Shown: piece after piece, positions 23,970 through 42,787 of the stretch
Layout: each line of letters starts with the position of its first letter
Numbering within the stretch: the stretch's first letter is position 1
Assembly (NCBI GenBank): GCA_963784835.1
Contig: CAWASM010000005.1
Location: 70,795-134,794, forward strand
Direction: 5' to 3'
From: an uncultured Actinomycetes bacterium
Lineage (GTDB): Bacteria; Actinomycetota; Thermoleophilia; RBG-16-64-13
DNA length: 64,000 nt
The notes under the pieces: model-generated
What the model was told of the DNA's origin: nothing
Databases searched by the model: none
What the model saw: only the letters and a program-made list of their open reading frames with translations
Made by a program: the position numbers and the translations under genes

Positions 23970-24003
23970 GACCTTCGAACAGTACCCTCGCAGGAGAGTT
24001 CTC

Positions 24004-24045
24004 GGGGCTCCCGCCTGGAAAGGCGGGAGCCCTACTTCTTTCTGT
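24004..24045. terminator. Hairpin between convergent genes, T-rich on the plus-strand side
   Basis: ggggctcccgcc-tggaaa-ggcgggagccc followed by tacttctttct. It lies between the VanW-2 stop (23969) and the NTPase stop (24032). Confidence 0.55.
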
Positions 24046-25204: not shown

Positions 25205-26337
25205 TCATTTGCTCCTGACGGCTCGTGCCATGAGGGTCTCCAGTTGCACATCGGTGAGTTCGATGTGGAAGAAGAGGCCATAGAAATCCCGGACTTCCGC
25301 CTTCATGTCGTACTGGTAGAGGTCCGGATAGAGCAGGTTGCCGAGCCACCGGACTCCCAAGATGCGCGCCACGCAAGGAGGACGGTCGAACCAGTCGAAC
25401 GGGCCCCGCGGTATCTGGTAGACCTGTCCGTCCTTCACGGCGGCCATGGTGGCCCACTGTGAGCCTGTGGTGATCTCGGCATAGGCCACGCTCTCCTCTT
25501 TGGGATCGCTGGCCACCAGGATGACCGCCGGGTTCCACACCAGAACCTGCTCCAGGGACACGGGCGCCATCCCATATTCCGACTGCGCGTCGACGTTGGC
25601 GACGTTCGCTCCCCCGACCAGTTCCAGCACCTCGGTGTGCTCAGAGCCCGCCGGGTCGGTGTTGAGCCCCTTGGTGCCTTCAGCGTAATACACCTTCACC
25701 CGTTGGTCGTCGGAGAGCGTGGCCGAGTTGGTCTGCGCCTCCTCGATGACCTCGTCGCAGTAGGCGGCCAATTCTCCCGCTCGTTCTTGCACTCCCAGCA
25801 ACTCACCGACGTAGCGGTAGGTCTCCCCGCTATTGACCAGGTGCCCGTCGATCATGACCACGGGTATGTTGAGCAATCCCTGAACGCGGTCGGCGTCGGA
25901 GATGGCGGCCTCATCCAGATAGCCGATGGAGAGAATGACATCCGGAGCGCGCTTGATGATCTCCTCGACGTTGCCGGTGGTGTTCTTGCCGAACCAACCG
26001 CCCAGGCCGACCGCAGACCGGTATTGCTCGGGGATGTATTCCTTCTCCAGAGCGGTGGGAGTGATGTTCCAGCCCACCAGCATCTCTGGAGCCAGCGTGT
26101 ACATGAGGTTGGTGCCCATCGGGCTTGTGCAGTACACGGTCTTGATAGAGGCGGGGATGGTCAGCTGACGACCGGCCTGGTCGGTGATGATGGTGCCCGA
26201 CTCCGAGTGTCCGTGGAGCCGGCGCTGTCGGAGCCGCAGGCGGCGACTCCCAGAGTCAGTGTCAGCACCACAAACGCGGCGACCACGACACAGTAGGTCC
26301 GCAAGACCGCACCCTCCCAAAAGCCCTTGACCCTCAC
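25205..26337 (-). CDS. Class III (FecB/BtuF-type) ABC substrate-binding lipoprotein; one frame break near 26215
   Basis: A GTG start at 26337 follows GGAGGAGG. The signal/lipobox VVLTLTLGVAACGS is in one frame and the mature Peripla_BP_2-like domain is in ORF 25205-26320. Confidence 0.8.
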
Positions 26338-26389
26338 GTCGCCCCTCCTCCGGACCGGTGCCCTGGTCCTTGCGGCTCGATTTCTCATT

Positions 26390-27137
26390 TCATCCCGGCG
26401 GATGTCGACCATCAGGCGCCGGCACGAAAAGATACCCTTGTGCGCGCCTTCCAAGCAGCGCTCCCATACGCCCGCCTTGTTCGTCACCACCGTGCCGGCC
26501 AGCAAGTCCACTCCGGAATCGAACCACCACGGGACGAGCGGGACGCTGGGCCCTACCAGCGCCACGGTCGCGCCGGCGGAGAGTTCTAGAAGACGAGGCA
26601 GGGTCTTGTTGGTGAGCGTGCTGCCGGTGATGAAGACACAGTCCTGTTGTGGCAGCACGTACTCGGCGGCAAAGTCGGGCAGGTCGCCTGCCTCTGGTTC
26701 TCGCTCAAGGATGGTGAGGTCACAGCAGTCCCGCGCCTTCTCCAGCCCCGGGAAATGACCGATGACGGCCACCTTCTTGCCCGCTATCTGGTCAAGCGTG
26801 GACGTGAAGGCGCCGGCGGATCGCAGGTCATCCAGCGGTCGCGCCAACCAGGCCTGCACCCGCTCGCGGCGCGTTGTAGTAGGCGTTGATGGCTGCCATG
26901 CCGAGCGAGGCCTGGCGCAGATCCCAGCTCTTGACGTAGGAGGCCAGCTCCCGTAGCGACCGTCCGGCGAGGGAGGAGAGAGGGCTACTCGTCGTGAGCG
27001 CCGCCCCGGTAGGTGAGAGCCATGCCCATGCCGTCAGAGTCCACGACGGTCCATGTGCTCGACCAAGCAGGCCTGGCCATCGCCTCAGGCGCGATGCCTT
27101 CGATCAGACGGTCGTAGATGTCCCAACTAGTGCTCAT
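26390..27137 (-). pseudogene. DUF4213/DUF364 (putative metal-chelation Rossmann-like) protein; at least two frame breaks, 3' end uncertain
   Basis: MSTSWDIYDRLIEG..DSDGMGMALTY (DUF4213-like) is in one frame and LRELASYVKSWDLRQASLGMAAINAYYN in a second. KVAVIGHFPGL...FITGSTLTNKTLPRLLEL...LVGPSVPLVPWWF (DUF364-like) is in a third. Confidence 0.7.
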
Positions 27138-27187
27138 GCCCGCCTTTCTTGGTCGGTTCTCTGGTCGGCGCTGTTCGTAATCCGCTA

Positions 27188-27199
27188 CAGAGTATAACG
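27188..27199 (-). promoter_or_regulatory. Second copy of the 12-mer CGTTATACTCTG (minus strand), -10-like, upstream of the DUF4213/DUF364 gene
   Basis: cagagtataacg at 27188-27199 is identical to 29161-29172. It lies about 50 nt upstream of the ATG at 27137. Confidence 0.3.
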
Positions 27200-27258
27200 G
27201 TCGCGGGCGCATCGCTGCAATAGCCCAGCGACTCTAAAGAGTCCTGGCGGCGCAGACC

Positions 27259-28026
27259 TTCAGCGTCGGATCGGTCGTCGGGGTCGACCCTCCAGTATGC
27301 GCACGGGGATGCCGTAGATGTCCTCCAGACTCGCCTCGGTGAGCACGTCGTCGGGGGAGCCCAGACGCGACCAGGCGGCCCGTCCTTGACCAGTCCCACC
27401 TTCGTGGCGCAGGCGAACGCATGGTTGGGGAAGTGCGAGGACATGAGCACAGCCAGGTCACCCTCTTGCACCAGGCTCTTGATCAACGCCAGCAGGCGCG
27501 CTTGGTTGCCGAAATCCAGATGCGACGAGGGCTCGTCCATGATGAGCACCCGCGGCTCCTGGGCCAGCGCCCGGGCGATGAGGACCAACTGGCGCTCGCC
27601 TCCGCTCAACTCGGTGTAGGGTCCGCTCTGCCAGGTCGGCGATGTCCATGCGCTCCAGCGCCGCGTGGGCCACCTCCTCGTCGTGGCGGGAAGGGCGCGG
27701 ACGTCAGGGGGATGTGGGCCGTTCGCCCGGTCAGTACCACATCGATCACATGAAAGGGGAACGGCGCCGTGTGAGCCTGGGGCACGTAGGCCATCAACCG
27801 GGCCCGCTCCCGACGCGACTGCGGCCCGAGGCTCTTGCCGTCGACGAGCACCTCCCCGCCCATGGGCTCGATGGCCCCGAGGATGGTGCGGAACAGGGTG
27901 GTCTTGCCCACGCCGTTCGGGCCGAGCAGGCAGAGGTTGTCTCCGTCGGCCACGGTGAGGTCCACGTCGGCTGAGCACCTTGCGCCGGCCATATCCGCAG
28001 GACAGTCCCCGCAGTTCAAGGATCAT
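27259..28026 (-). pseudogene. ABC transporter ATP-binding protein (FepC/BtuD type); at least four frame breaks
   Basis: Walker A LLGPNGVGKTTLF, signature/Walker B LSGGERQLVLIARALAQEPRVLIMDEPSSHLD and the C-terminus DDVLTEASLEDIYGIPVRILEG* lie in different frames. Confidence 0.8.
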
Positions 28027-29126
28027 GTCCAGGCCCTCCTGGTGCGGGCCATCAGAAGGATGAAGAACGGCGCCCCGATGAGGGCGGTGAGGATGCCAAG
28101 GGGCATCTCCAGGGGGCCGGCCAGTCGCGCGAGATCGTCGACCAAGAGCAGGTACACGCCGCCGATGACGGCCGAAACCGGCAGAAGCTTGCCGTAGTCG
28201 GGCCCCACCAGCCCGCGCGCCAGATGAGGGATGATCAGTCCCACCCAGCCGACGATGCCGGCCACGCTGACCGCGGAGGCGGTGAGAAGCGTGCAGGCTC
28301 CGATGATGATCACCCGCAGTTTGCCCGTCTCGGCGCCCATGGCCCGGGCCTCTTCCTCTCCGAACGAGAGGGGATTGAGATGCCAGCGCACAGCTAGGAG
28401 GGCTCCGCCGCCCACGACCATGGGGCCGAGCAGGATGAGAAGGTCCTGAGTGTTGATGGCCGCCAGACTGCCCATCAGCCAGAAGGTGATGGCCGGCAGC
28501 TTGTCGTACGGGTCGGCCAGCACCTTGAGAATCGAGATGAGCGAGGTGAAGACGGTGCCCACCAGGATGCCCGTGAGCACCAGGAACAGGGTGGGGTCCC
28601 CCCGGCGCAGCCGGCCGGCCAGCATGTAGGTGACGAGGACCGCGCCCAACCCAAAACCCAGCGCCAGGAACTGAGTCACGAGAATGCTCTTCGACAGCAT
28701 GATGCCGAGAGCGGCGCCGAAGCCCGCCCCGGCGGAGGCGCCCAGGATGTCCGGCGACACCAGGGGTTGCGGAACATGCCCTGATAGGCCGCTCCCGACA
28801 GCGACAGCCCAGCTCCGATCATCAGCGCAGCCGAAGATACGGGGCAGGCGCACATTCAGGATGACTGTGCTGACGTTCTCCGGGACCGTCGCGTGGGTAA
28901 GCCCCAGCTTCGAGCCGAACAGCGTGAGGATCTCGCCCACCGAAACGTGGTAGCGGCCCAAGGTCAGCGATAGAAGAAAGGCCGCGACGGGCAAGACGAT
29001 CAGGAAGGGCACCCTCAGCCGAACCAGGGCGGACCGCAGAGTGGAGGCGCGCGTTTTGGAGGAGACCCCAGCCGTTTCGACCTCCAGCGCCTCTTCTTTC
29101 GTGACCTCTGTCCGCCGCCCGGCCAT
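28023..29126 (-). CDS. FecCD/BtuC-family ABC permease; internal compensated double frame shift (about 28763-28838)
   Basis: GIVGWVGLIIPHLARGLVG and the C-terminal GAPFFILLMARTRR are typical. A 25-codon stretch reads out of frame, whereas the alternate frame gives SAALMIGAGLSLSGAAYQGMFRNP. Confidence 0.85.
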   Translation of the reverse strand: MAGRRTEVTKEEALEVETAGVSSKTRASTLRSALVRLRVPFLIVLPVAAFLLSLTLGRYHVSVGEILTLFGSKLGLTHATVPENVSTVILNVRLPRIFGCADDRSWAVAVGSGLSGHVPQPLVSPDILGASAGAGFGAALGIMLSKSILVTQFLALGFGLGAVLVTYMLAGRLRRGDPTLFLVLTGILVGTVFTSLISILKVLADPYDKLPAITFWLMGSLAAINTQDLLILLGPMVVGGGALLAVRWHLNPLSFGEEEARAMGAETGKLRVIIIGACTLLTASAVSVAGIVGWVGLIIPHLARGLVGPDYGKLLPVSAVIGGVYLLLVDDLARLAGPLEMPLGILTALIGAPFFILLMARTRRAWT

Positions 29127-29225: not shown

Positions 29226-29605
29226 CTAGCTCTCCGGGGGAGGAGACGCCGGGGCCTTGGTGGGCTCAGGATCCTTCCAGTCGGCAAAGTGCCGCTGGAA
29301 GACCGCTTCCAGAGCCTCCTCCGCTTCGGCCGCCACCGCCCGATAGCGCGACATCAGGTCTTGGGCCTCGGGGGTCAGGTGGGAGCCCCCGCCCAGACTG
29401 CCGCCGACGCTGCGGTCGAGCAGAGCAAAACCCAGACGCTCTTCGGCCGCGTGGAGGATTCGCCACGCCTTGTTGTACGACATGCCCAGTTCCTGGGCGG
29501 CCTTGCGTAACGAGCCGCACTCCTGCACACCCTGAGAAGTCGGGCAGGGCCGTCTCCGAACGCCCTACCGCGAGAGTCAAGCCACAATTTGTACATCAAG
29601 CGCAT
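29226..29605 (-). CDS. ModE N-terminal-like (COG2005) winged-helix regulator, no Mop domain; one frame break near 29525
   Basis: MRLMYKLWLDSRGRAFGDGPARLL is in one frame. ECGSLRKAAQELGMSYNKAWRILHAAEERLG..GGSHLTPEAQ is in ORF 29226-29528. Confidence 0.7.
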
Positions 29606-29642: not shown

Positions 29643-30324
29643 CTAGGCTCCGCCGCCGGAAGCTGACGGGCCGGCCTCCTGGCCGTCGGGCGGTGGAACG
29701 GCCCCCTGGCCTGGAGACGGCGTGGCAGCCGTTTGGCCGGCCGGCGGTGGCTGCGCCGCGTCGTCCGGCGCCCTGGGCGCCGGTTCCGGCTGCGGAGCAA
29801 GCGGCTTCTCGGACGCGGTGGGCGCCGAAAGGTAGGTCTCGGTGCCACAGTACGGGCACTTCACCAGACCCTTGCCGGCCAGCTCCACCTTGCCGCCGCA
29901 ATTGGGACACGTGTGGTCCTTGATCTGAGCGGCCTCCGCCGACACCAACTCTCCGCGCTCCCAGTTCACGTAGCCTCGGAAAAGGTCCTTGCCGATGATG
30001 TCGTAGATGAGCACCTTGACCTGTTCGCGGTTCACCTGGCACTCGATGGCCAGGTCGGCCACGGTCACACGCCCCCGCGTCGTGACAGCGTTCAGGATGG
30101 TTCGCTCCTTGTCGGCCTTGCTCTCGGCCTTGACCTCGCCCCGCGAGGTCAGAAGCAGATAGAGGCCCACGGCAAGGAACGGTAGCGAGAAGAGTACGAA
30201 CCCCAGGATATGTCCGGTGACGCTGCGCGTTCTGACCCACGGCCTCAGCCAGACCGGCGCCCAGCCAGCCGGCGACGCCTAGACTGACGACGATCATCAC
30301 GATCCCCATTATCCGCGTGCGCAT
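29643..30324 (-). CDS. Hypothetical 2-TM protein with winged-helix-like segment, CxxC..CxxC zinc ribbon and Pro/Ala-rich tail; one frame break near 30230
   Basis: AGGAGG lies 5 nt upstream of the ATG at 30324. TM1 is IMGIVMIVVSLGVAGWLGAGL and TM2 is ILGFVLFSLPFLAVGLYLLL, in a second frame. The ribbon is CPNCGGKVELAGKGLVKCPYCG. Confidence 0.6.
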
Positions 30325-30400
30325 GGTTGCCTCCTGGTTTCTCGGGTCCAAGGCTGGTGTCCGGCCAATCGGGTCGGCGCCAGCGTCGCATAACGATCTC

Positions 30401-32249
30401 TCTAGCCGGCGCGGATCCCTCCGCCGCCACCGCCGCCGGAGAAGCCTCCGCCAAAACCACCGCCGGAAAAGCCTCCACCGCCAAACGACGCCATGGCTCG
30501 CCCGAACTGCTCGAAGGAGCCGAGGTCAGCACGTTGGAGATGTTGCCCAGGCTGCTGAACAGGCTGTTGGAGATAGAGTCAAGGCTGAAACCGCCCCCGC
30601 CACCCGACCCCGCTGGGAAGACCGCCTCCCAGGCCGCCGCCGATAGGCCCGGTGCCAGGCGAACCCCAGACGATCACGGGCGGGTGATACCAGTCGGGTG
30701 CGGGCACGGTAAGCTCCTCAAAGCGCTGGGTCCAGTGCTTCTCCACCCCGAAGGCGATGGCATACGGCAGGTACTTCTCGAACTTCTCCTTGGCCGCTTC
30801 CATGTCGGTGAAGCGGGTGAGGTCCTGCAGATAGTTGCGGAAGGCTTCCCACTTCTTCTGCTCCTGCGCCCCTTTGGCGGTGCGTTGAGGCATGCGGCTG
30901 GCGAACGCCCACACGATGATGGCCGAGATGATCGCCGCTGCGAAGAAGAAGCCCCAACCGGAGATGTTGGCTGCTCTCAGCACGAACGTCATCACGCCCA
31001 GCACTGACGCGCCACCAGAAAGCCGTACCCCACCCAGCGCTTGCGCGCCTTGTTGGGATTCTTGTAGAACAGGCCCCCCGTGGCCACCGCTGTATAGATC
31101 TCGGCTCACGATAGGTGCAACTTTGGTGTAGAAATGGTTCTTGAGCTGAACGGTGGTCACCTCATCGCTCCGAACCGAGTCGAAGAGCGACTCCGCTGTC
31201 TTCTTCTCGAACCCTTCCAGATCGTCGAAGGACTTCTTCCGAGTGAACGTGGTAAGTGGCTTCTTGAGGATGTCCTTCTTCCTGCGTGTCGGTAATCTCG
31301 ATATAGCCGCGCCGGGCCAGGTCGACGATGGTGGCGATCACCTCTTTGGTGTCCACTCTCTCGTCGATGAGCGCTCCCACCAGACCCGGAGAGAGATCGG
31401 AGGGCGGCTCGCTCACATACTTGGCGTAGGTCGCCCCCGGTTGGTCGCGTCCGCGCCTGAACCAGATGAGAAACATCGTCAGAAAGACCAGGATCGGAAG
31501 GGCAAACCCGACCTTGGGAGTGATGTAGTTGAAGCAACGCGCCGCGCAGTCCACACGATACTTGACCACGCCCTTCGGAAAGCCGGTGACGGTCCAGAAG
31601 CTGGTGAAGGAGGGGATGTCCGTGGCTTCGTAGACCATGGTGGAGGCGCGGGTGAGGACGCGGTCCACTGTACGCCGTAGCCCGCCTGGACCGCCGCGGC
31701 AATGTCCTCCGGCGGCGACCGAGCCCGGCAGCTTGACCGTGGCTTTCACTGCCCCGATGGCCACGGGCGTTTCCGCATCGAACACGTACCACCGCGAGCT
31801 CGTCGCCCGCGTCGCAGAACATAGACCGCCTGCTTGGCCCGATAGTGGAAAGTCCAGGTGGCCGACGTGTCGGTGAGGTCGAAGTTGACCTGGATGTACT
31901 CTGGTCGCCTTCCTTGTATGTGCTGAAAGTGCCTGGGTCGTGTCGTTCTCCGGCAGGACAGCTGCCGGCTCGCGTCCTGGACCGTCGATGTCGGCGATGC
32001 CGTCTAGTTTGCCGTGGGGATGTTGCGCGCGACGAAATGGTAGTTGCCCTCGAAAGTCGAAGGTCGACGGTCTCGTCCACCAGGACGTCGCCGTTCTGCT
32101 GCACGTCCAGAACGACGTCCAAGTTGCTGATCCGCCAGTCCTTGGCCTGCGCGGACGCCGCCGGCCCCACCGAGTAGCACCAACAGCGCGCAGGCGACCA
32201 GCAGAAGCGCGAGTCCCCACAGGCGGCCGTTGTATCTGCCGACGGTCAT
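30401..32249 (-). pseudogene. DUF2207-family membrane protein; many (at least 8) frame breaks
   Basis: Recognisable pieces are the signal RLWGLALLLVACALLVLLGG and the N-terminal domain WRISNLDVVLDVQQNGDVLVDETVD / FEGNYHFVARNIPTAN. Further pieces are TM/cytosolic YAKYVSEPPSDLSPGLVGALIDERVDTKEVIATIVDLARRGYIEI and KKWEAFRNYLQDLTRFTDMEAAKEKFEKYLPYAIAFGVEKHW. The Gly-rich tail FGGGGFSGGGFGGGFSGGGGGGG* completes the set. All of these are scattered over three frames. Confidence 0.75.
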
Positions 32250-33413
32250 TTCTTCTGGTCCTCGGTGTCGGCGTCCGCGGCATCTGCCTTGGCGGGAGCC
32301 TCAGCCGGAGCCTCAGCGGGAGCGGCCGCGGGCGCTGCGGCCGCCGCTGCCGGCGCGCCCATCTGCTGACCGCAGTTGGGGCAGAACTTCGAACCGGCGG
32401 GCAGAGTGGCCTTGCAGTTCGGGCAGGTCTCGGTGGCAGCCAGGTGCGTGCCGCATTGCGGGCAGAAAGTGCTGCCGAAGGGGATGTCGGCTTGCTGCAG
32501 TTGGGGCAGCGGACCTTGGGTTGCCTCCTCCGGCCATGGCCTGCTGCAGCATGCCCGGGATCATCATGCCCAGACCGGCGCCCGACGCCCAGGCCCAGCC
32601 CGGCAGTGGCAGCCGTGCCGATGTTGGTACCATCGGCTCCGCTGCCGCCTCCGCCGGCGCCTTTGGCCAGATCGCCGATGGCCTGTGCGGCCTTGTACTG
32701 GAAGTAGCGGTCCATGCCGCCCACGGCCTCCATGCCCGAGCGCTCGTCGATGCGCTTCTGCACATCTTCGGGAGGCGAGATGGCGTTGATGATGAAGTCA
32801 ACCATCGCCAAGCCGTATTGGGCGAAGTCATCCTTGATACGGGCCTTGAGACCGGCGCCCAACTCATCGAAGTAGCGCGGAAGGTCGAGCACCGACTCCA
32901 GGCTCTCGCCCAGGATGTCGGCCAGACGGCCTATGATGATCCCGCTGAGAAAGTCCTCGATCTGGCTGTTGGTGAAGATGCCCCGGGTGCCCACGATCTT
33001 GACCACGAACAGCTTGGGATCGGTGATCTGGAAGGTGTAGATCCCGTTTGAGCGCAGCCGGATCATCTTGAACTCGGTGTCGCGGAAGAGGATCGGCTCG
33101 GTCGTGCCCCACTTGAGGTCGGTGAAGGTCCGCCGGCTGACGAAATACGACCTCGGCACTTGAAGGGCGAATCGCCGAACAGAGGGTTTCGTGAGGAGGT
33201 GGTCAGCAGGGGGATGTTGAGCGTGGTGAGGGTGTGCCGGCCCGGCCCGAAGACGTCGTAGGCTTTGCCATCCCGGAAGAAGACGGCCCACTGGCTCTCG
33301 CGTACGATCAACTGTGAGCCGATCTTGAACTCGCCCGAGCCCTGCTCAGGGATGCGGTGGACCATCTCCTCGCCTTCTTCGTCAACGAACTCGATGAGAT
33401 TCATAAGGGCCAT
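32246..33413 (-). pseudogene. SPFH/band-7 protein of the YdjI (COG4260) type with C-terminal double zinc ribbon; at least three frame breaks
   Basis: The N-terminus reads LIEFVDEEGEEMVHRIPEQGSGEFKIGSQLIVRESQWAVFFRDGKAYDVFGPGRHTLTTLNIPLL. It continues FVSRRTFTDLKWGTTEPILFRD...PPEDVQKRIDERSGMEAVG. The C-terminus reads CPNC..FCPQCGTHLAATETCPNCKATLPAGSKFCPNCG. ATGA overlap with the DUF2207 start. Confidence 0.75.
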
Positions 33414-33416
33414 CGG

Positions 33417-33932
33417 TTACCTCCCGGCTCCGGTGATGAGATGTTCTCGCTCGGTGAACCGAGCATCCAAGGCTTCGATACGCTCGGACAGCAGGTTGAT
33501 GTCGGCTCGAAGAGAGGGGCTGGCCGCGGAAAGCGCGGTAGCCAGCTCCACGATGCTGCCGGCGTCGGTCTCCAGCGATCTGTCGAACGCGTAGAGCTCA
33601 TCGAGCTTCTGCTCGCCCACCTTGACAGGGTCGAACATGCCGGCGTAGCCGTAGTCGGCGAACTGCACCCTGTCTGCCGCCGTGCGCAGCTTGCGCATGA
33701 CCACGTCGATCTCGCCGAGCGCGTCCAGGTTACCGGCCTTGACCAGGTCGAGCTTGACGTCGTCCAGCTTGCCCAGGCAGGTGTCAAGCCGCTCGGCCAC
33801 GTAGACCCGTTCGATCTTGTCGGTCTCGCGGCGGATCTCCTTCTTCTTGTATCCGCGGATGCCGGGGACCTTCTCAGCAAACCGTTCCCACCAGTTCTTG
33901 CTCTCTTCCACCCGCTCGTCGATGCCCGCCAT
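33417..33932 (-). CDS. Hypothetical 171-aa helical (coiled-coil-like) protein
   Basis: Intact ORF with a charged heptad-like sequence and no recognisable motif. The stop lies 3 nt before the SPFH start. Confidence 0.6.
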   Translation of the reverse strand: MAGIDERVEESKNWWERFAEKVPGIRGYKKKEIRRETDKIERVYVAERLDTCLGKLDDVKLDLVKAGNLDALGEIDVVMRKLRTAADRVQFADYGYAGMFDPVKVGEQKLDELYAFDRSLETDAGSIVELATALSAASPSLRADINLLSERIEALDARFTEREHLITGAGR

Positions 33933-33983
33933 GGTCTCCCCTTTCCGCTTTTTCCCGCGCCACCCCTGCGGATGCGTCGCGCT

Positions 33984-34655
33984 CTACGCTACCAGACCGT
34001 CGAACTCCCGCAGCAGCAATCTCCAACTAGATTCATGGATATACCTTGGATCCCACACCGCGGGGATCAGGATCAGTTCCTCGCCCAAGGTCTGCAACTC
34101 GTAGTCCACTGAGCGCAGGTCGCGGTTCTCGTGTGACTCCACAGCGAGGTAGACGAAGTGCGCCAACACCCGGGCATCCTTCCTCCCGGTCACCACCGGA
34201 GAGAGGGTGCCGAAATCAGGGGCGCCCCCCGCGCCTGCCTCCGGACGGGCGGCGGCCTCGACAAGAGCGGGCCGCTGAGCCGTGTGTTCTGGAGGACCCG
34301 CAGTCAGCTCGAGGTCCGGCTGGGTCTCGGTCAGCCTTACCCCCAGCCGTTGGACCACTGGGCGCACCAGGCTGAAGGCCGGGACGTACAGATAGGGGGA
34401 CCCCGGGGCGACGACCTTGCTGATACGTTCCCAGGCGCTGCCCGGAGACGCCGAGATGGACACGGCAAGACGCCATGTCGCCAGATACTGCACCTGCCCG
34501 GCTACTGCCAGCTCCGTGGTAGCCGTGGCGGTGAGTGGGGATGACGAGGCGAGACCTTCTTCGCACGGCTCATAGGCAAGCCCGCAGGCCGGGCACAGGA
34601 AGAGGGCGGCGTCATCGCCTCCCTGAAGAGCCGCACCGCAGTTGGTACAAAGCAA
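33984..34655 (-). CDS. Hypothetical zinc-ribbon protein
   Basis: N-terminal CTNCGAAL..LCPACG ribbon. Intact 223-aa ORF in operon register. Confidence 0.6.
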   Translation of the reverse strand: MLCTNCGAALQGGDDAALFLCPACGLAYEPCEEGLASSSPLTATATTELAVAGQVQYLATWRLAVSISASPGSAWERISKVVAPGSPYLYVPAFSLVRPVVQRLGVRLTETQPDLELTAGPPEHTAQRPALVEAAARPEAGAGGAPDFGTLSPVVTGRKDARVLAHFVYLAVESHENRDLRSVDYELQTLGEELILIPAVWDPRYIHESSWRLLLREFDGLVA

Positions 34656-34665
34656 CGGAACGAGG

Positions 34666-35145
34666 TCAGCCGGAGAAAGGTTCGTGGTACTCGACCTCCT
34701 TCTCCGCTCGGAATTGCCTGCCCAGGTACACAGCCAACGCAGACACTATCACGGCTGCGGCCACCGATGCCCCTCGCCCGGAGACTCGGGTGACCGCAAG
34801 GTAGACGAGCACAGCCGCGGCCAGTGCGAGGACGCCCAACCGGCCCGCCTGTACCGCGATCTGGCCGCTCCGATCGGCCGGGGCCCTCCCCGCGTTCACA
34901 GTCCCATCCCGGCCGTCCACGACAATATGGCAGGAACGGCCGCTCGTCTCATATCGCACCAGCCACAACGGGTAGTAGAGCAGGGACGAGGACTCGCGGA
35001 ACGTGAACAAGTGGTCGTCGGGAGTCAGCGCTCCCGAGAGGGGCTGCAGCGCCGCCCGTCTGCCTCTCTCGGCGACCTCGCCGGCCTTCCCTTCCGCCCC
35101 AAGGACCGTGATACCGGGTTCCAGCTCCCCGGCCAAAAGGGGCAC
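34666..35145 (-). CDS. Hypothetical protein with two C-terminal TM helices (possibly the frame-shifted C-terminal half of the upstream zinc-ribbon gene)
   Basis: LLYYPLWLVRYETSGRSCHIVVDGRDGTV is followed by two hydrophobic helices. The same frame stays open upstream past the stop of gene 35174-35812. Confidence 0.5.
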   Translation of the reverse strand: MPLLAGELEPGITVLGAEGKAGEVAERGRRAALQPLSGALTPDDHLFTFRESSSLLYYPLWLVRYETSGRSCHIVVDGRDGTVNAGRAPADRSGQIAVQAGRLGVLALAAAVLVYLAVTRVSGRGASVAAAVIVSALAVYLGRQFRAEKEVEYHEPFSG

Positions 35146-35173
35146 GAGGAGCTCCCGGCCTGTGACCAGAGGT

Positions 35174-35812
35174 CTACGTCGCCCCGAGATCTGCGAAATC
35201 GGTCGCCGCCTGGTAGAAGCGCCGCTCCTGAAGCCGCGGCTCCCTGACCCGCTCCTTCACCACCTGCAGCTCCAGATGGTCTCCCCCCGCTTCATCGGTC
35301 GGATCGTGGACGAGTTCGTTCTGGGTCCGCAGCTTGTAGCCGAACTCCCAGCCCGCTGTCAGCGCTCGGTGCTCCCAAATGGGGGCGTAGACAAGGCGGG
35401 CATCCACAAAACGGGCTGCCCGGGAAGGTTTCGCAATGCCGGGAAAATCTCGAAGCCAAGCCGCGCCCGCGCCCGCGGCCTCGAGGCGGTCGACTCGGGC
35501 GGGGAAGTACCAACGCGAGAACCCTCCCGTCTCATTGACCACGACTCTCACGCCGCAGTGACCGCAGACCAAGATCCGCCTGCCCTGCCGGGCATTGAGT
35601 GGCCCCGCGCACTGGGAGCATTGCACCGAGCGGAGGGTCTGCTCCTCCGGAGTTCGCTCCCCCCGGCTCCCCGGCTCGAGCACCTGCTCTCGGGCCAAGG
35701 TGGAGCCGCAGCAAGTGCACACTAGAACATCGGCATACTCCGGAAGGAGCACAGGAGCCCCGCACTGGGGGCAGAACGCCTCGGAGGTCGTGTTGGCGGC
35801 CCTACCTGTCAT
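35174..35812 (-). CDS. Hypothetical protein with two zinc ribbons
   Basis: Ribbons CPQCGAPV..VCTCCG and CSQCAGPL..VCGHCG. Start trimmed to MTGRAAN (35812), downstream of the baeRF stop at 35823. Confidence 0.55.
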   Translation of the reverse strand: MTGRAANTTSEAFCPQCGAPVLLPEYADVLVCTCCGSTLAREQVLEPGSRGERTPEEQTLRSVQCSQCAGPLNARQGRRILVCGHCGVRVVVNETGGFSRWYFPARVDRLEAAGAGAAWLRDFPGIAKPSRAARFVDARLVYAPIWEHRALTAGWEFGYKLRTQNELVHDPTDEAGGDHLELQVVKERVREPRLQERRFYQAATDFADLGAT

Positions 35813-35822
35813 CCGACAGATT

Positions 35823-36968
35823 CTACGCGTAACGCAGCAGACCCGCCACGCCTCCCAAGTCGTCCAGCACGGGGATGTTCTCGCCAACCTCCACCCGGCC
35901 GTTATGCAGGATGGTAAGCCGCACTATCTCCCCTATCACGTCCGACACGGGCACGGGCTCGCCGCCACAGACCGGGCAGCTCGCCACCGCGATCAGGCCG
36001 GCCTGATCGCACAACCCACATCGCCACCCCGGCAGCCGGCGGTTGCGATCGACTAGCAGCGTCTGCAACTGCCCCCGGCCGACTGCAGCCATCACGTCGT
36101 CGAAACCGGAGACGCCGCGACCGCCTCCGCCGAGCCCTTCTCGGATGCGGCCGGCAAGCGCCGCCATCTCCTCATGGCGGGCCCGCTCTACCGCCGCGCG
36201 TGCGCTCACCACCATCTGACCGGTCGAGGCCGCTGCATCAATGGGTATCTCCGCCACGACTTTGGCGGCCACCGCGGCCGGCAAGGCCCGCCGGAACCCG
36301 CTGGCGATATCGTGCTGCGCGCAGAGCGCGACCCGGGGGACACCAGTGGTCTCCAGGAGCCGGGCCGAACGCCGTGGCCACCTCTTTGAAATGCAGTTCC
36401 ACCAGGGCGTCCTGGCGCGCGGCCGCGTAGTACTCCTTGATGGACACCTCGCCCGTCTCGCGGTCGCTGCTCCGCAGCCAGGGACCGGAAAGGTCGTCTT
36501 CGCTGGCGACGCCCCACTCGTCCACGACTAACAAGCTGGACTCATCACGGCTCACTTTGGCGATGAGGAAGGGCTCGAGCAATGAGAGAGCGTGGGCTAC
36601 CGGTCGGACATGGGGGAAGGCTCGAGCACCAGCCGGTTCACCAGCCGCAACGGCAACTCGATGCGCTCACGAAAATCCCCCTCCCCGTCGACGAACACGG
36701 CCAGACCCTGAGTCTGCGGGGTCACATCGTACTCAAGCACTTCGAGGACGTAGTCGAGGTCGGCCTGAAGCAGGCGCTTCTTCTCCTTGGTGATGCCGTG
36801 CTCCTTGGTCACCCGGTTGAACTCGCCGTGGAGGAAGGCCGGAGCGACCTGCCGCCAGTCGTCCAGACGGCTGGTAGAAAGAGTGACCGACAGAAACAGG
36901 CCTCCCGCCGCCTTCGCCCCGGCCAGCATCTTCAGCTTCTCACCAGCCGCCGCCACGCTGTCTATCAC
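35823..36968 (-). CDS. Bacterial eRF1/Pelota-like (baeRF-type) protein with zinc-ribbon insert; two frame breaks (about 36590 and 36270)
   Basis: Three colinear ORF pieces (36597-36968, 36238-36582, 35823-36284). The C-terminal part GVSGFDDVMAAVGRGQLQTLLV...IVRLTILHNGRVEV resembles eRF1 domain 3, and CGLCDQ..CPVCGG is inserted in it. Confidence 0.6.
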
Positions 36969-37267
36969 GACGCGCCGCCCTCACGCGGAGCCTCAGCTTC
37001 CGCCGTGTCGCCTACCTCCGCGGTGCCCTCCACAGCATGCTCGGCAGGATGCTCCACACCGTGAGCGGCCTCCCGGTCGCGCAGCGTCTGCTCCGTCCGC
37101 CACCGCTGCTCGCGGTCGCGGAACCTGTCCACCAGAGCGGACTTACCTTTGTCGTGTGTAGCATCGGTCATGTCCATGGTGCCCGGGTCCGAGAGTGCTG
37201 CCTTCATCTTCTGAGTGGGCGTGCGAGGACGTTCTCTGCCGGAGCGTTCGACCTTCTTGTCGGCCAT
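36965..37267 (-). CDS. Hypothetical small charged protein (100 aa)
   Basis: AAGGGG lies about 7 nt upstream of the ATG. The stop overlaps the baeRF GTG start (GTGA). No recognisable motif. Confidence 0.4.
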   Translation of the reverse strand: MADKKVERSGRERPRTPTQKMKAALSDPGTMDMTDATHDKGKSALVDRFRDREQRWRTEQTLRDREAAHGVEHPAEHAVEGTAEVGDTAEAEAPREGGAS

Positions 37268-37350
37268 CTTGGCCCCTTTCGGTTCTTCGGAGGTGCGGCC
37301 TTTGGTCGCCGGGCGTGTGCTTGTCTACTACCCATGGTTGGCGGCGATGT

Positions 37351-37390
37351 AACTCCCCTCCAGCGGCTCGAGGGGAGTTTGAGTTTTCCC
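37351..37390 (+). other. 10-bp GC-rich hairpin followed by a T-rich tract in the divergent intergenic region (terminator/attenuator-like)
   Basis: aactcccctc-cagcggctc-gaggggagtt followed by tgagttttccc. Confidence 0.35.
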
Positions 37391-37449
37391 TCGCCTATGC
37401 ATATTGTGGATGCTGACAAGTGCCTAATCGCTGGGAGGAGCTTCCTCTG

Positions 37450-39960
37450 ATGAAGACTACGACAAGCTGGGTTCCTTCTACCTGGGCCGCAAGTACGATC
37501 TGTCCACAAAGAAGGTCGGTGGCCCCTCCTCTACGACTCAAAGGACCTGGTCACCCACGGCGGTGTGCGTGGGCATGACCGGCAGCGGCAAGACAGGTCT
37601 CTGCATGGGTCTGCTGGAAGAGGCCGCAATCGACGGGATCCCGGCCATCGTCATCGACCCCAAGGGCGACCTGGCCAACTGCTGCTCACCTTTCCCGAAC
37701 TGCGCGCCGAGGATTTCCGCCCCTGGGTCAGCGAAGATGAGGCCAGCAAGAAGGGCGTGTCCCCCGACGAGTTCGCCCAGCAGCAGGCCGAGACTTGGAA
37801 GAAGGGGCTGGCCGACTGGGGACAGGACGCCGGAACGGATCGCAGCGCCTGAAAGACGCGGCCGACTTCGCCATCTACACCCCGGGCTCGACCGCCGGCC
37901 TGCCGGTGAGCATCCTGAAGTCGTTCGCTGCACCCGCCACGGCGATCCGCGACGACGAGGAAGCGCTGCGCGACCGCATCGGCACCGCGGCCACGAGCCT
38001 CCTGGGCCTGGTGGGCATAGACGCCGACCCGGTCCAGAGCCGGGAGCACATCCTGCTCTCCAACCTGTTCGACACGGCCTGGTCGGCCGGTCAGGACCTC
38101 GACCTGGCCGCGCTCATCCAGCAGATCCAGACTCCGCCGTTCGCGAAGGTGGGCGTGCTCGACCTGGAATCGTTCTATCCGTCCAAGGAACCGATTCGGG
38201 CTGGCCATGCTCATCAACAATCTGCTGGCCGCGCCCGACCTTCCAGACCTGGCTGGAAGGCGAGCCGCTCGACATCGAGCGCATGCTGTACACCCGCGAT
38301 GGCAAGCCGCGGGTCTCCATCTTCTCCATCGCCCACCTCTCCGATGCCGAGCGCATGTTCTTCGTGTCGCTGCTGCTGAACGAGGTGCTGGGCTGGGTGC
38401 GGTCGCAGCCGGGCACGGGCAGCCTGCGGGCCATCCTCTACATGGACGAGATCTTCGGCTTCTTCCCGCCGGTGGCCGAACCGCCCTCCAAGAAGCCGCT
38501 CCTTACTCTGCTCAAGCAGGCGAGGGCCTTCGGGGTGGGAGTCCTCTTGGCTACTCAGAACCCGGTGGACCTGGACTACAAGGGCCTGGCCAACGCCGGC
38601 ACCTGGTTCATCGGCCGGCTGCAGACCGAGCGCGACAAGGACCGCCTGCTCGAGGGGCTGGAGGGCGTCGCCGCAGGCACCGAAGGCGAAGTTCGACCGG
38701 CGGCAAGATGGAAGAGATCCTGGCCGGTCTCGGCAAACGGGTGTTCCTCATGTACAACGTGCACGAGGACGCACCGGTGACCTTCCAGACCCGCTGGACC
38801 ATGTCGTACCTGGCGGGCCGGCCACCCGGACGCAGATCAAGACCCTCATGGACCCGCGCCGGCCGCGCGTGGATAAACAGGAGGCTGCGCCGGCGGCCGA
38901 GCCTGCGACGCCTGCGGCGCCCGCGCAGATCAGGCCGCCCGCCTCCGCCATCCCCGACGGGCCTCTACCGAGCGCCGTCGCGGCTGCGGCGGTCGCCGCA
39001 CCCTCAGCCGGCGCCACTGTCATCCCAGCCGAGATACCTCAGTACTACCTGCCGGTAAGAGGCGAGCTCCAGGCCGGGGGCCAGATGATCTATCAGTCTG
39101 GCGTCTTGGCGGCGGCCACCGTGGGTTTCGTGAGCACGGGAACCGGGGTCAGCACCTCCAACCGCATCCGGCGCTTCGTCGCTGCGCCTGAGAGCGCGCT
39201 CGCCATCGACTGGGAGAAGGCCACGGCTCTCGAGGCCACTCTGGAAGAACTTGACCGGCAGCCGCACTCCGGGGCCTCATTCGCCGATGTTCCTCCGGCT
39301 ATGGCCAAGGTCGCCTCGTACCGGTCGTGGGGCACGGACTTCTCCGACTGGGCCTTCCGCACTCAGACCATGGAGGTGTTCAAGAGCGCCACCTTCAAGG
39401 CGACCTCCAACCCGGGAGAGAGCGAGGAGGACTTCCGCGGCCGGCTCCAAGCCGCCGCCGATGACAAGAAGAAGACGGCGACCGAGGCGCTACAGAAGAA
39501 GTACGAGGCCAAGAAGGCCACGGTGGAGGGACAGGTGCTCAGGGCCGAGCAGAAAAAAGCCCGCGAAGCCGAGCAATCCCGCGGACGCAAGATGCAGACG
39601 GCCATCTCCTTCGGCGCCACCGTCCTCAGTGTCCTTGTGGGAAGTAAGAAGTTCGGTACCGGCACCCTAGGCCGGGCCACCACGACCATGCGCGACGTGG
39701 GCCGCAGCATCGACGAGGGCGGCGACGTCAAGCGGGCCGATGAGAACCTCAACGTCACCAAACAGAAGCTGGCCGACATGGAGACCGACCTCCAAGCGGA
39801 GATCGCCGCCCTCGAGGCCGGGCTGGATCCCAAGAGCGAAGCTCTGGAGAAGATGATCGTGCGGCCTCGCAAGAGCGACATCACCGTGGACGCTCTGGGC
39901 CTGGTCTGGATGCCCTATTGGAAGGACGCCTCCGGCGCGCTCACCGGGGCCTGGGGATAG
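37450..39960 (+). pseudogene. FtsK/HerA-superfamily P-loop ATPase resembling DUF853 (YjgR)/DUF87, with about 350-aa coiled-coil C-terminal extension; about 9 frame breaks, all before 38850
   Basis: GGGAGGAG precedes the ATG at 37450. Walker A is [10 protein letters not shown] followed by [11 protein letters not shown]. Walker B is [14 protein letters not shown] and the sensor region is [35 protein letters not shown]. The pieces alternate among all three frames, and the last 1.1 kb is intact. Confidence 0.75.
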
Positions 39961-39999: not shown

Positions 40000-40455
40000 G
40001 TGGACATGCTGAAAGACTTCAAGGCGTTCATCGACAAGGGCAACCTGATCCAGTTGGCCGTGGCCTTCATAATGGGCGTCACGTTCGCCGCCGTTGTCAC
40101 GTCGCTGGTCAAGGACATCATCATGCCCGCCGTGGGACTCGGCTTGGGAGGCGTGGACTTCTCCAACCTGTTCGTTGTTATCAAGGACGGTGTCCCGGGC
40201 GGGGCGTACGCAACCCTCGTCGATGCGCAGACGGCCGGCGCCGTCACCATCAACTACGGGGTGTTCGTCAACGCCATCATGACCTTCCTCATCGTGGCCA
40301 TCGTGCTGTTCTTCGTCATCAAGGCGTACTCGAAGGTCTCCAAGCCGAAGGCGCCGACCACCAAGGACTGCCCGTTCTGCACCACGGCCATCGCGATCGC
40401 GGCGACCCGTTGCCCGGCCTGCACATCGGAGCTGCCGGCCGCCGAAAAGGCCTAG
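40000..40455 (+). CDS. mscL: Large-conductance mechanosensitive channel with C-terminal CxxC..CxxC extension
   Basis: FKAFIDKGNLIQLAVAFIMGVTFAAVVTSLVKDIIMP and INYGVFVNAIMTFLIVAIVLFFVIK are MscL TM1/TM2. The tail is DCPFCTTAIAIAATRCPACTS. Confidence 0.9.
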   Translation: MDMLKDFKAFIDKGNLIQLAVAFIMGVTFAAVVTSLVKDIIMPAVGLGLGGVDFSNLFVVIKDGVPGGAYATLVDAQTAGAVTINYGVFVNAIMTFLIVAIVLFFVIKAYSKVSKPKAPTTKDCPFCTTAIAIAATRCPACTSELPAAEKA

Positions 40456-40539: not shown

Positions 40540-42787
40540 ATGCCGCTAGCTTCCTCTCATGACCAAGTCTTCTTTGCCACCAGTCTGCGCAACACAGAAG
40601 GGCTGTTGCTGGACGAACTCCGCTCGCTGGGCGCCACCGACGCGGCCGAGACCAGGGGTGGCGTCGCCTTCACCGGAGCGCTCTCACTGGCCTACCGGGT
40701 GTGCCTCTGGTCGCGAGTGGCCGGCCGAGTGCTCCTCCGCCTCGCCTCCTTTGCCGCCGAGAGCCCGGACGACCTCTACGCCGCGGTGCACGAACTCCCC
40801 TGGGAAGACCACATGTCGGTCACCGGCACCCTGGCCGTCGAAGTGACCTCGGCCGTCAGCCGGGGTCCATTCGCTCAGGTCAACACCCACTTCGTCGAAC
40901 AGCGGGTCAAAGACGCGGTGGTCGACCGCTTCCGGGCCCAAACGGGGAGCCGGCCTGGTGTCGACCTGGCCCGGCCGGACATCCGCATCAGCCTTCACAT
41001 CGCTCCCGCCGAGGCGGTCGTCAGCCTCGACCTCTCTGGGGACAGCCTACACCGGCGTGGATACCGTATGGAGGGCGGGGAGGCCCCGCTCAAGGAGAAC
41101 CTGGCCGCGGCCGTCCTGCTTCGGGCAGGATGGCCGGCCATAGCCTCCAAGGGCGGGGCTCTGGTCGACCCAATGTGCGGTTCGGGCACCCTACTGGTGG
41201 AAGGCGCCTTCATGGCCGCCGACATCGCCCCCGGGCTCTTGAGAGAGTACTTCGGCTTCCAGGGGTGGAAGGGATTCGAACCCGCAGAGTGGGCCGATCT
41301 CATACGGGAAGCCGAGGAGCGGCGCGCGCATGGGCTGAAGAGTCTGCCTCCCATCGTGGGGTTCGATATCGACGACAGGGCCGTGGGGACGGCCCGCGCC
41401 AACGCCCGCAGAGCGGGCCTCGCGGGCCGCATCATGCTGGAACGACGCGGGCTGGCCGCACTCACCGGCCTGGACCGGCCGGCCGGCCAGGGTCACCCGG
41501 CCCCAGTGAGCGTCCCGGGCCTCCTCGTGACCAACCCCCCCTACGGCAAGCGGCTCGGGGATGCGTTGGAGTTGGTGGAGACCTACGAGACCCTGGGCCA
41601 GAAGCTGAAGGAGCACTTCTCTGGGTGGGAAGCCGCGATCTTCACAGGCAATCCCGACTTAGGCGCTCACCTCGGGTTGCGGGCCCACCGGGTCAACGTC
41701 CTGTTCAACGGGCCGCTGGAGTGCAAGCTGCTGCTCTTCCACATCGGTGATCCTCGCAGCGCCGACAAACAAACTGCCGGCCGGCGGCGCCGGCGCTGAA
41801 GAGGCGGGAATCGGCGATCCCCTCTCAGAAGGCGCGCTGATGTTCGCCAACCGCCTCCGCAAGAACCTCAAGCATCTGCGGTCGTGGGTAGCCCGGGAGA
41901 ACATCCAGTGCTACCGAGCCTACGACGCCGATCTGCCGGAGTACGCTGTGGCCGTCGATCTCTACGGGGATCGGGCGCACGTTCAGGAGTACGCGCCTCC
42001 AGCTACTGTGGACCCGGTCCGGGCGCGGCGCCGGTTGAAGGAGGCGGTGGCTGCCGTCCCCGGAGTACTGGGGATCCCGGCTTCCCAGGTGGTGGTGAAG
42101 ATCCGGAGGCCGCAGCGAGGCCCCGAGCAATACCAGAAGCTGGGCGCCGAAGGGCGCCTGATGGAGGTGGAAGAGAGCGGCCTGCGCTTCCTGGTGAACT
42201 TGACCGACTACCTCGACACGGGCCTGTTCCTCGATCACCGGATCACCCGGAGCCTCATCCGCGAGATGGCCTCTGGGCGGCGCTTCCTCAATCTGTTCGC
42301 CTACACGGGCTCTGCCTCCGTGTACGCCGCGGCCGGAGGGGCGACCGCCACCACCACCATCGACCTGTCGCCCACCTATTTGGACTGGGCCCGGCGCAAC
42401 ATGGCCCTCAACGGGTTCACAGGCCCCGAGCACAGCTACGCGCGGGCCGACTGCGTGGAGTGGCTGGCGACGGCCGGCGCTCGGAACACCGCGCGCGCGA
42501 CCGGGGACTACGGCCTTATCTTCCTGGACGCCCCCACCTTCTCCAACTCAAAGAGCATGAGCGACTCTCTGGACATCCAGGACGACCACCCCGCCCTCAT
42601 CCGGCCGGCCGTGCGCCTGCTTTCCCCGGGTGGCGTCCTCTTGTTCTCCACCAATTCCCGCCGTTTTAAGCTCGACCTTGAGCTTTCCGAGGAATTCGCG
42701 GTCGCCGACATCAGCGCACAGACTATCCCGCCGGACTTCGCGCGCAATCCCCGTATCCACAAGTGCTACCTCATCCATGGCCGCTGA
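40540..42787 (+). CDS. rlmL: Bifunctional 23S rRNA methyltransferase RlmKL (THUMP + two SAM-MTase domains); one frame break near 41780
   Basis: The N-terminal THUMP/MTase part (LVDPMCGSGTLLVEGA, LVTNPPYG) is in ORF 40540-41799. The C-terminal RlmK-like part (FANRLRKNLKHLRSW, FLNLFAYTGSASV, IFLDAPTFSNS) is in ORF 41747-42787. Confidence 0.85.

Follow-up and report, generated by a model that had tools for sequence, protein, structure and literature searches.

SPFH proteins organise membranes universally, but to our knowledge almost nothing is known of what the soluble prokaryotic subfamilies do, YdjI of Bacillus subtilis being the only case studied. Here we describe an actinobacterial locus built around a YdjI-like SPFH protein. 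It lies in a stretch of 64,000 nucleotides (nt) of contig CAWASM010000005.1 (assembly GCA_963784835.1, positions 70,795 to 134,794), which we call the window and within which all positions are numbered. Besides the SPFH protein, the locus encodes a helical protein of 171 amino acids (aa) that we call H171, a zinc-ribbon protein with two C-terminal transmembrane (TM) segments (ZnR) and its soluble paralogue, a DUF2207 membrane protein, a 2-TM zinc-ribbon protein (TM-ZnR), a release-factor-like protein of the baeRF group preceded by a small gene, and a divergently encoded HerA-type ATPase. The reading that we favour, with moderate confidence, is that these genes form three adjoining units and not one machine, with the SPFH–H171 membrane module (29643-35812) as the functional core.

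Prokaryotic SPFH proteins have been divided into 12 subfamilies, of which the soluble SPFH8/9 were without a documented member (Hinderhofer et al. 2009). YdjI, a soluble SPFH protein, contains a low-complexity stretch and has a zinc finger at its C-terminus (PMC8581546). Experiments in B. subtilis established that the membrane proteins YdjG and YdjH recruit YdjI to the membrane, and that YdjI in turn localises PspA. Of the systems known, the window locus is closest to this pspA-ydjGHI (samGHI) membrane-stress operon, and it too encodes a soluble SPFH protein, with a Gly-rich linker and a zinc ribbon. ZnR has N-terminal zinc ribbons and C-terminal TM helices, as YdjG does, a likeness of architecture and not one found by sequence comparison with the Bacillus proteins. 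A second membrane protein is encoded as well, DUF2207 being in the membrane-partner position. Unlike samGHI, the locus has H171, DUF2207 and TM-ZnR proteins. The middle of ZnR may also differ from the YpeB/NTF2-like domain of YdjG: it is predicted to form long β-hairpins and gave no significant YpeB/NTF2 match. A preliminary description of the locus, made from the sequence alone, had noted that PspA/Snf7, NfeD and LemA were missing, and no such match appeared in Pfam scans of the locus proteins. These scans also detected no PspA/IM30 gene and no TPM-domain YdjH. Since PspA and the TPM protein were looked for and not found, the locus falls outside the PspA–YdjGHI system and is, by analogy, a variant with a probably similar mode of action.

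Three other described systems share features with the locus. As in SPFH–NfeD operons, a prokaryotic SPFH gene has a dedicated small partner gene; however, H171 is encoded upstream and is all-helical, whereas NfeD combines TM segments with an oligonucleotide/oligosaccharide-binding (OB)-fold β-domain, and NfeD gave no match among the proteins of the window or their orthologues. Archaeal 'Meth_adaptin' ESCRT-type loci (Makarova et al. 2024) likewise combine an SPFH protein carrying a C-terminal zinc ribbon with other zinc-ribbon proteins, but no Vps4, ESCRT-III or adaptin-appendage gene was found beside H171–SPFH in the archaeal loci examined. The third is SMU.243 of Streptococcus mutans, which has the same two DUF2207 Pfam domains, with uppP/BacA nearby both there and in Thermoleophilia loci. 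The SMU.243 mutant shows sensitivity to acid and to oxidative stress, consistent with a role in envelope stress, although an SPFH or H171 partner has not been reported in S. mutans.

H171 is a near-obligate upstream partner of one soluble SPFH type

A word-indexed search with H171 returned 199 relatives. The top 120, from which identity and length were taken, were 63-94% identical to the window protein and nearly all 170-173 aa long, and an exact-sequence look-up of the window H171 found no record. When the H171 profile was run against a library clustered at 50% identity, 1,418 clusters were matched at E<=1e-3 and 802 at E<=1e-10. We scanned one genome per GTDB species with H171 and obtained 80 loci, 54 of them actinobacterial and 26 distant. 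These came from Actinomycetota, Acidobacteriota, Gammaproteobacteria, Zixibacteria, Edwardsbacteria, Thermofilaceae, Bathyarchaeia, Nitrososphaera and Methanosuratincola. A hidden Markov model (HMM) of each locus gene was mapped on all 80 loci. We observed that a Band_7_1-type SPFH gene lay <=120 nt downstream of H171 in 76 of the 80 distinct loci; the four exceptions were two noisy assemblies, one 1.6-kb gap and one locus with fragments upstream.

Six extra contexts were obtained via cluster representatives, and in five of them H171 was again directly upstream of the SPFH gene. The pair H171–SPFH was seen on a short contig (L083), in Armatimonadota (L084) and in L087, where the 90%-identity cluster includes a protein from a Bacillota metagenome-assembled genome (MAG). 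L086 had H171–SPFH–DUF2207–TM-ZnR, and L088 had H171–SPFH with a SHOCT tail instead of a ribbon. The sixth context (L085, Chloroflexia) was arranged as TM-ZnR–DUF2207–H171 fusion (435 aa)–unknown gene–SPFH, with one gene separating the pair. H171, the most informative protein of the set, is a near-obligate upstream partner of the soluble Band_7_1 SPFH type in bacteria and archaea. It represents a previously unnoticed SPFH partner family, found in both prokaryotic domains and in about 1,400 clusters and having no Pfam family. A search of the open-access full-text literature turned up no account of H171 as a family and none of Band_7_1 proteins being paired with it.

The SPFH protein of the window matched Pfam Band_7_1 with 203.9 bits and DZR with 46.9 bits. 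It has a hydrophilic N-terminus and no TM segment, and its zinc ribbon is a C-terminal double one. In L088, the SPFH protein (8619-9629) ends in SHOCT and not in a double zinc ribbon, and a separate double-zinc-ribbon protein is encoded 1.6 kb off.

H171 was modelled by AlphaFold2 (AF2) as a helical bundle, with a predicted local distance difference test (pLDDT) score of 79. The model has two short N-terminal helices, a long hairpin (23-66, 69-90), a low-confidence loop that holds the family-wide YGYxGFFD motif, and two more helices; the invariant residues are P23, D38, R42, G95, D117 and R162. A fold search of this model against the PDB gave generic helical bundles only, and no PspA, Vipp1 or ESCRT-III. 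A sequence search of the PDB gave nothing below E 0.1, and a Pfam scan of 97 diverse H171 members gave scattered coiled-coil noise and no family. We also considered H171 as a hidden PspA or LemA. This was unsupported, with no PspA, Snf7 or LemA among the 97 members. A weak match was obtained to the uncharacterised NCBIfam LIMLP_15305 family.

Some members of the family carry additional domains. The H171 domain was found fused to DUF4178 (P0185 and P0189; 338 aa), and DUF4178 is a component of PspA-linked polyamine operons. In Chloroflexota, H171 also occurs with a long C-terminal extension that matches no Pfam family (P0232 and P0253, 435-451 aa; L085, 8001-9308). In one MAG, MFD04716.bin.2.190, four contigs (L012, L016, L020, L045) each carried a copy of the locus, with differing gene content and with H171 proteins 67-70% identical to that of the window, which suggests a mixed-strain bin.

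Zinc-ribbon and DUF2207 proteins accompany the pair across phyla

The preliminary description had counted three zinc-ribbon proteins upstream of H171. We found that two of these, open reading frames (ORFs) of 237 aa and 159 aa, are parts of one gene, so that there are two genes with three ribbons between them. The one-ribbon paralogue was present in 53 of the 54 actinobacterial loci, and the HMMs of the two ZnR families cross-matched. When ORFs of the 26 non-actinobacterial loci were clustered de novo, only H171, SPFH and a zinc-ribbon family recurred. With an HMM made from actinobacterial ZnR members only, proteins encoded beside H171/SPFH in archaea and Acidobacteriota were matched (E 1e-11 to 1e-34), the matches covering the second ribbon and both β-hairpin regions. 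The Bathyarchaeial and Nitrososphaera versions were without TM helices.

In the AF2 model of ZnR (pLDDT 84.8), two ribbons and a helix precede two very long β-hairpins, and two TM helices are C-terminal. No significant match was found in a fold search against the PDB, where pore-forming β-toxins were matched via the hairpins with a TM-score <=0.1. For the middle region, modelled as the long hairpins, YpeB-C appeared at rank 24 only (E 0.7, a weak match). We propose that the 2-TM ZnR protein is the membrane anchor of the module; that its long hairpins might form an oligomeric β-structure is speculation, the model being that of a monomer. The H171–SPFH pair with this putative ZnR anchor is likely a membrane scaffold of two components, ancient, undescribed and common to bacteria and archaea.

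The DUF2207 protein matched DUF2207_C with 164.9 bits (cutoff 33) and DUF2207 with 61.9 bits (cutoff 24.4). Its extracytoplasmic N-terminal domain is followed by a TM/cytoplasmic C-domain and a Gly-rich tail. TM-ZnR, which always adjoins DUF2207, has a two-TM N-terminus, a possible winged helix-turn-helix (wHTH), a zinc ribbon and a Pro/Ala-rich tail. The two TM segments and the ribbon had been recognised in the preliminary description, together with a winged-helix-like domain; for the latter, only sub-threshold Pfam matches were obtained. Homologues of TM-ZnR were found beside DUF2207 in L085 (E 4e-46) and L086 (E 7e-52), in differing gene order. Because the gene order changes across phyla yet the neighbourhood stays, there is good evidence at the level of gene neighbourhoods that DUF2207 and TM-ZnR would belong functionally with the H171–SPFH pair. 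A conserved, uncharacterised membrane-associated gene set around a YdjI-like SPFH protein, zinc-ribbon proteins and DUF2207, as had been suggested, does recur across phyla. These recurrent companions make a concrete, testable module for DUF2207, Band_7_1 proteins and the new helical family.

In distant actinobacterial (Thermoleophilia-type) loci, a LiaF-TM/Toastrack protein, an extracytoplasmic function (ECF) sigma factor and BacA/UppP recur <=10 kb from the module. Such envelope-stress-type genes lie, for example, at 1316-2248 in L041, 5926-6540 in L046 and 15897-16712 in L051, with equivalents in other Thermoleophilia-type loci.

The baeRF protein is a GGQ-less relative of Balon

The protein encoded next to ZnR had been called eRF1/Pelota-like, and this identity was borne out. 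After repair of its reading frame (see below), it matched PF18854 (baeRF_family10) with 45.7 bits against a gathering cutoff of 27.1, and PF18854 was carried by all of the 120 relatives listed. A homologue search with the repaired protein returned same-clade orthologues only. The best PDB match of its profile was the ribosome hibernation factor Balon, MSMEG_1130 (8v9j, E 2.9e-6, residues 85-380), and the next was the archaeal aeRF1 C-domain 3ir9. The view that this protein has no described parallel was not supported: it belongs to baeRF-1 family 10, with Balon as its best solved relative. Profile searches placed baeRF in this way, and H171 and ZnR remained without a significant PDB match.

We observed a conserved loop of fixed length in the family, GPWL[RK]SSDRETG[ED]..K.YYAAARQ. 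The conserved catalytic-loop region of the family 10 protein contains no GGQ motif, and the sole conserved Gln sits beyond the loop, in the helix that follows. In the C-terminal domain, CxxC…CPxC aligns to the zinc ribbon of 3ir9. Judged from these alignments, the family 10 protein is a GGQ-less, zinc-ribbon-bearing relative within the aeRF1/Balon superfamily. A 2019 survey (Burroughs & Aravind) had considered family 10 as possibly catalytic, with a catalytic glutamine that it might have retained, and described HPF neighbourhoods only.

Balon genes occur in stress-operon contexts (Helena-Bueno et al. 2024). Like the baeRF-1 clade's Balon/Rv2629/MSMEG_1130 proteins, the window protein is an aeRF1-like three-domain bacterial protein without GGQ in a stress-type neighbourhood. 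It differs from Balon in keeping the zinc ribbon where Balon has its EF-Tu-binding β-hairpin. It also belongs to Pfam family 10 and falls below the cutoffs of the NCBIfam equivalogs Rv2629 and MSMEG_1130, which it matched weakly (62.2 and 59.2 bits versus cutoffs of 320 and 480). As further differences, baeRF has no RaiA/HPF neighbour here, and a co-translated charged protein of 100 aa precedes baeRF.

This small protein has a conserved N-terminal half and a variable acidic tail, and it matched no Pfam, NCBIfam or PADLOC family. It was always found with baeRF, in 44 of the 54 actinobacterial loci, and the GTGA overlap of the two genes indicates that it is translationally coupled to baeRF. A GGQ-less, zinc-ribbon-bearing family 10 protein beside a putative membrane-stress module is a candidate in which the deployment of hibernation factors could be studied.

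The baeRF and HerA blocks are separable from the module

In the preliminary description, the SPFH core, the release-factor-like protein and the HerA-type ATPase had been proposed to belong to a single candidate system. All ten or eleven genes would then make one integrated membrane system, an SPFH/ZnR/DUF2207 scaffold with a release-factor-like protein and a HerA motor. Gaps of 3-77 nt, the two 4-nt overlaps and a 182-nt divergent region in common with HerA are in favour of such a system, as is the adjacency of HerA, baeRF and the module in ~30 species-level genomes, and a stress link is plausible for all the encoded functions. However, neither the baeRF gene with its small gene nor HerA was found in any of the 26 distant loci or the 6 extra contexts that carry the module. 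Natural variants also lack either block: L010 and L045 are without the small gene and baeRF, and L021 is without HerA, MscL, the small gene and baeRF, and all three keep the module.

The spacing between baeRF and the module points the same way. In ~21 of 45 relatives a gap of ~0.8-1.1 kb separates them, and in ~15 of these relatives the gap holds an ORF of ~285 aa on the opposite strand (a HAD hydrolase in L002), so that no single transcript can cover baeRF and the module there. In the window the spacing is compact, baeRF and the ZnR gene being 10 nt apart, and the baeRF unit is probably co-transcribed with the module in this genome. The baeRF family 10 pair is found beside the module only in one actinobacterial class and is evolutionarily separable from it. 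Conservation of the neighbourhood thus extended across phyla for H171/SPFH/ZnR and for DUF2207/TM-ZnR, whereas baeRF and HerA were class-limited.

HerA was identified with confidence as the FtsK/HerA-superfamily (DUF853-like), divergently transcribed ATPase with a coiled-coil tail that had been described. The repaired protein matched HerA_C with 31.5 bits (cutoff 22) and DUF87 with 22.8 bits, and has a Walker A motif, GMTGSGKTG, and a Walker B-like motif, ILYMDEIF. An N-terminal ATPase is followed by a low-complexity linker and a coiled-coil/hydrophobic C-terminal half. The start codon ATG at 37450 is preceded by GGGAGGAG. HerA was present in 35 of the 54 actinobacterial loci (0 of the 26 distant ones) and, within Actinomycetota, only where MscL and RlmKL also occur. 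In the Thermoleophilia-type group, PolX abuts the small-protein gene directly and HerA is absent. HerA is a subclade-limited syntenic neighbour and not a core member of the module. With HerA co-varying with MscL and RlmKL and with baeRF missing or set apart in a number of loci, we consider a single integrated system unlikely. The locus reveals no new kind of system, and its main interest lies in the SPFH partner family and the cross-phylum DUF2207 link, not in the proposed link of the core to HerA and a release-factor-like protein.

Defence systems often include HerA ATPases and membrane scaffolds, and the preliminary description had taken the broken frames as a sign of variability, which raises the question of an anti-phage defence locus or an otherwise mobile accessory island. 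The HerA-like protein did give PADLOC matches, but these were weak (mad8, E 7e-11; HerA models, ~1e-6); no other locus protein matched PADLOC, and no partner of mad8/HerA systems was detected. No nuclease or effector partner (as in HerA–NurA, HerA–Sir2, HerA–DUF4297 or MADS) was found beside HerA, where the neighbours are MscL and RlmKL. H171 had no match in 72,556 plasmids and 50,697 phage records. Across the class the region keeps its synteny with PolX, RlmKL, BirA and BioY, neither an integrase or transposase nor an adjacent tRNA was detected, and the GC content of the window is high (62-68%) and uniform along its length. A defence or mobile island is, on these grounds, extremely improbable.

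L009, L016, L020, L010 and L045 have one further gene ~1 kb past the 3' end of HerA, a paralogue of the last ~300 residues of HerA; in L016 and L020 this gene occupies the position that MscL has in other loci. This suggests that the C-terminal half of HerA is an independent module. The divergent region contains a 14-nt inverted repeat, AACTCCCCTCCAGC / GCTCGAGGGGAGTT, with arms 1 nt apart. As an operator it was rejected, being not conserved in five relatives.

A model for the three units

Beyond the gene identities, co-occurrence patterns and modularity that we observed, we infer complex formation, a membrane-stress function and ribosome binding. In unit 1, the soluble SPFH protein would be made together with its near-obligate partner H171, and ZnR, its soluble paralogue, DUF2207 and TM-ZnR would dock both on the cytoplasmic face of the membrane. 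By analogy with YdjG/YdjH/YdjI, the membrane proteins would recruit an SPFH oligomer. The SPFH assembly may sense or buffer membrane/envelope stress. H171 could then be a soluble helical client or effector, in the position that PspA holds in Bacillus, with the TM–(wHTH)–zinc-ribbon protein as a possible signalling output. In unit 2 (35823-37267), the family 10 protein would, under stress, most likely bind the ribosomal A site. HerA, MscL and RlmKL, syntenic neighbours in one subclade, make up unit 3 (37450 onward, plus strand). An extended form of this model, in which the scaffold is, within this actinobacterial class, wired to the Balon-like A-site factor so that membrane/envelope damage leads directly to ribosome shutdown, and in which a ring of ZnR hairpins docks an SPFH cage, seems to us quite unlikely.

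Several points weigh against the three-unit model. The proteins of the locus are known in this lineage from their genes. As H171 and ZnR have no structural or sequence relative of known function, the roles given to them are guesses. PspA and YdjH, at the centre of the Bacillus system, are missing here. Synteny with housekeeping genes extends over the whole region across the actinobacterial class, so the adjacency of baeRF, DUF2207 and others within the class is weak evidence either way. A real functional link between baeRF and unit 1 is possible, given their 10-nt spacing in the window. Lastly, DUF2207 and HerA have a higher density of frame breaks than the neighbouring genes.

Gene layout and frame breaks in the window

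The closest relatives of the window are MAGs of uncultured Actinomycetota that carry the labels Actinomycetes, Gaiellales or Thermoleophilia; RBG_16_64_13 and the MFD bins are examples. The raw ORFs were fragmented across 29.2-40 kb. To resolve the gene set, intact orthologues taken from the long contigs L001 and L002 were mapped onto the window, after which proteins of its closest relatives, L003 and L007, served for a frameshift-aware protein-to-DNA alignment. Full-length genes were recovered in this way (Table 1), and every gene named in the preliminary description was found where it had been placed, including both 4-nt overlaps and the divergent ATPase. The overlaps were read directly as GTGA at 36965-36968 (small protein/baeRF) and ATGA at 32246-32249 (SPFH/DUF2207), the latter containing the SPFH stop; the gap from H171 to SPFH is 3 nt. 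The minus-strand array had been described as ending at 29643. Its gaps are indeed tight (3-77 nt), but it continues into a helix-turn-helix (HTH) gene, which lies 37 nt beyond TM-ZnR on the same strand and is the last gene of the array. The intergenic region common to the array and HerA was present, with its size corrected slightly by direct reading.

Table 1. Features of the locus and its surroundings in the window (window positions)
Feature	Position	Strand	Basis or remark
Small charged protein, 100 aa	36965-37267	-	ORF
baeRF-1 family 10 (eRF1-like), 380 aa repaired	35823-36968	-	PF18854
Zn-ribbon x2 + two C-terminal TM protein (ZnR), 381 aa repaired	34666-35812	-	orthologue alignment
One-ribbon soluble ZnR paralogue, 223 aa, intact	33984-34655	-	ORF
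H171, all-helical, 171 aa, intact	33417-33932	-	ORF
SPFH protein, ~388 aa repaired	32246-33413	-	Band_7_1 + DZR
DUF2207 membrane protein, ~615 aa repaired	30402-32249	-	both Pfam domains; stop TAG 30402-30404
2-TM + zinc-ribbon protein (TM-ZnR), 226 aa repaired	29643-30324	-	repair + conservation
ModE-like HTH_1 protein, 125 aa repaired	29226-29605	-	Pfam HTH_1
Divergent intergenic region, small-protein gene vs HerA gene, 182 nt	37268-37449		
Inverted repeat, 14 nt	37351-37379		in divergent region
HerA/FtsK-superfamily ATPase, ~832 aa repaired	37450-39960	+	HerA_C, DUF87
MscL	40000-40455	+	
RlmKL	40540-42787	+	
PolX	42979-44514	+	
FecCD permease	28023-29126		uptake cluster
ATP-binding cassette (ABC) ATPase	27127-28026		uptake cluster; frame-broken
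DUF364 protein	26161-26859		uptake cluster
Peripla_BP_2 binding protein	25205-26320		uptake cluster
tRNA-Arg(CCT)	11709-11780		sole tRNA of window

The orthologue-guided alignment revealed 38 frame-shifting indels: 10 in HerA (relative to L003), 2 in baeRF (near 36616 and 36366), 1 in ZnR (near 35176), 4 in SPFH, 18 in DUF2207, and 1 each in TM-ZnR, HTH and RlmKL. If these breaks were real, the locus, or at least DUF2207 and HerA, would be a decaying remnant in this strain. The load of DUF2207 and HerA, against 0-4 indels in the adjoining genes, would fit such decay, as would a frame-break density in 24-40 kb of ~2x the window average. However, no internal stop codon occurred in ~3,900 repaired codons, and many indels were closely spaced compensating pairs. 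The repaired proteins were above the Pfam gathering thresholds for HerA_C, baeRF_family10, Band_7_1 and DZR, both DUF2207 domains and HTH_1. Their distances to L003, scaled by the L003-L005 distance, were 0.68 for DUF2207 and 0.58 for HerA, inside the range of 0.35-0.95 seen for the other genes.

The breaks were also not confined to the locus. They struck RlmKL, the ABC ATPase and other flanking genes, and a codon-statistics Viterbi scan, which counts coding segments lacking a terminal stop codon, found ~30 further breaks over the whole window, 12 of them within 24-40 kb. Examples elsewhere lie at 3453, 5707, 17633, 22143-24032, 49026-50414 and 58371-60798. The statement that reading frames are most broken at this locus is right as to the enrichment, but other regions of the window are broken too. 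Near relatives have intact genes (baeRF P0270 and P0271, 90% identical, 381 aa; ZnR P0421, 81%, 379 aa), and several other long-read MAGs of the clade are fragmented likewise across all genes of the region. Because there are no internal stops, divergence is normal, the breaks are window-wide, relatives are intact and similar MAGs show the same pattern, the breaks are most likely long-read consensus/assembly errors, and decay of the locus in this strain is very unlikely. The breaks had also been read as the sign of a strain-variable accessory locus; the region is, however, syntenic with the housekeeping genes PolX, RlmKL and BirA/BioY in >50 species-level genomes.

A promoter/terminator scan gave counts within shuffle expectation, and in the divergent region promoter-like matches did not exceed chance. 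An Rfam search found no match in the locus, its sole match in the window being tRNA-Arg(CCT), far from the locus.

The HTH protein at the end of the array matched Pfam HTH_1 with 41.3 bits and the NCBIfam ModE_repress domain at E 7e-17. Its gene was seen in 36 of the 54 actinobacterial loci and in 0 of the 26 distant ones, in the near clade only. The array is followed by a metal/siderophore-type uptake cluster (Table 1), and the ModE-like HTH gene may be part of this cluster rather than of the SPFH module.

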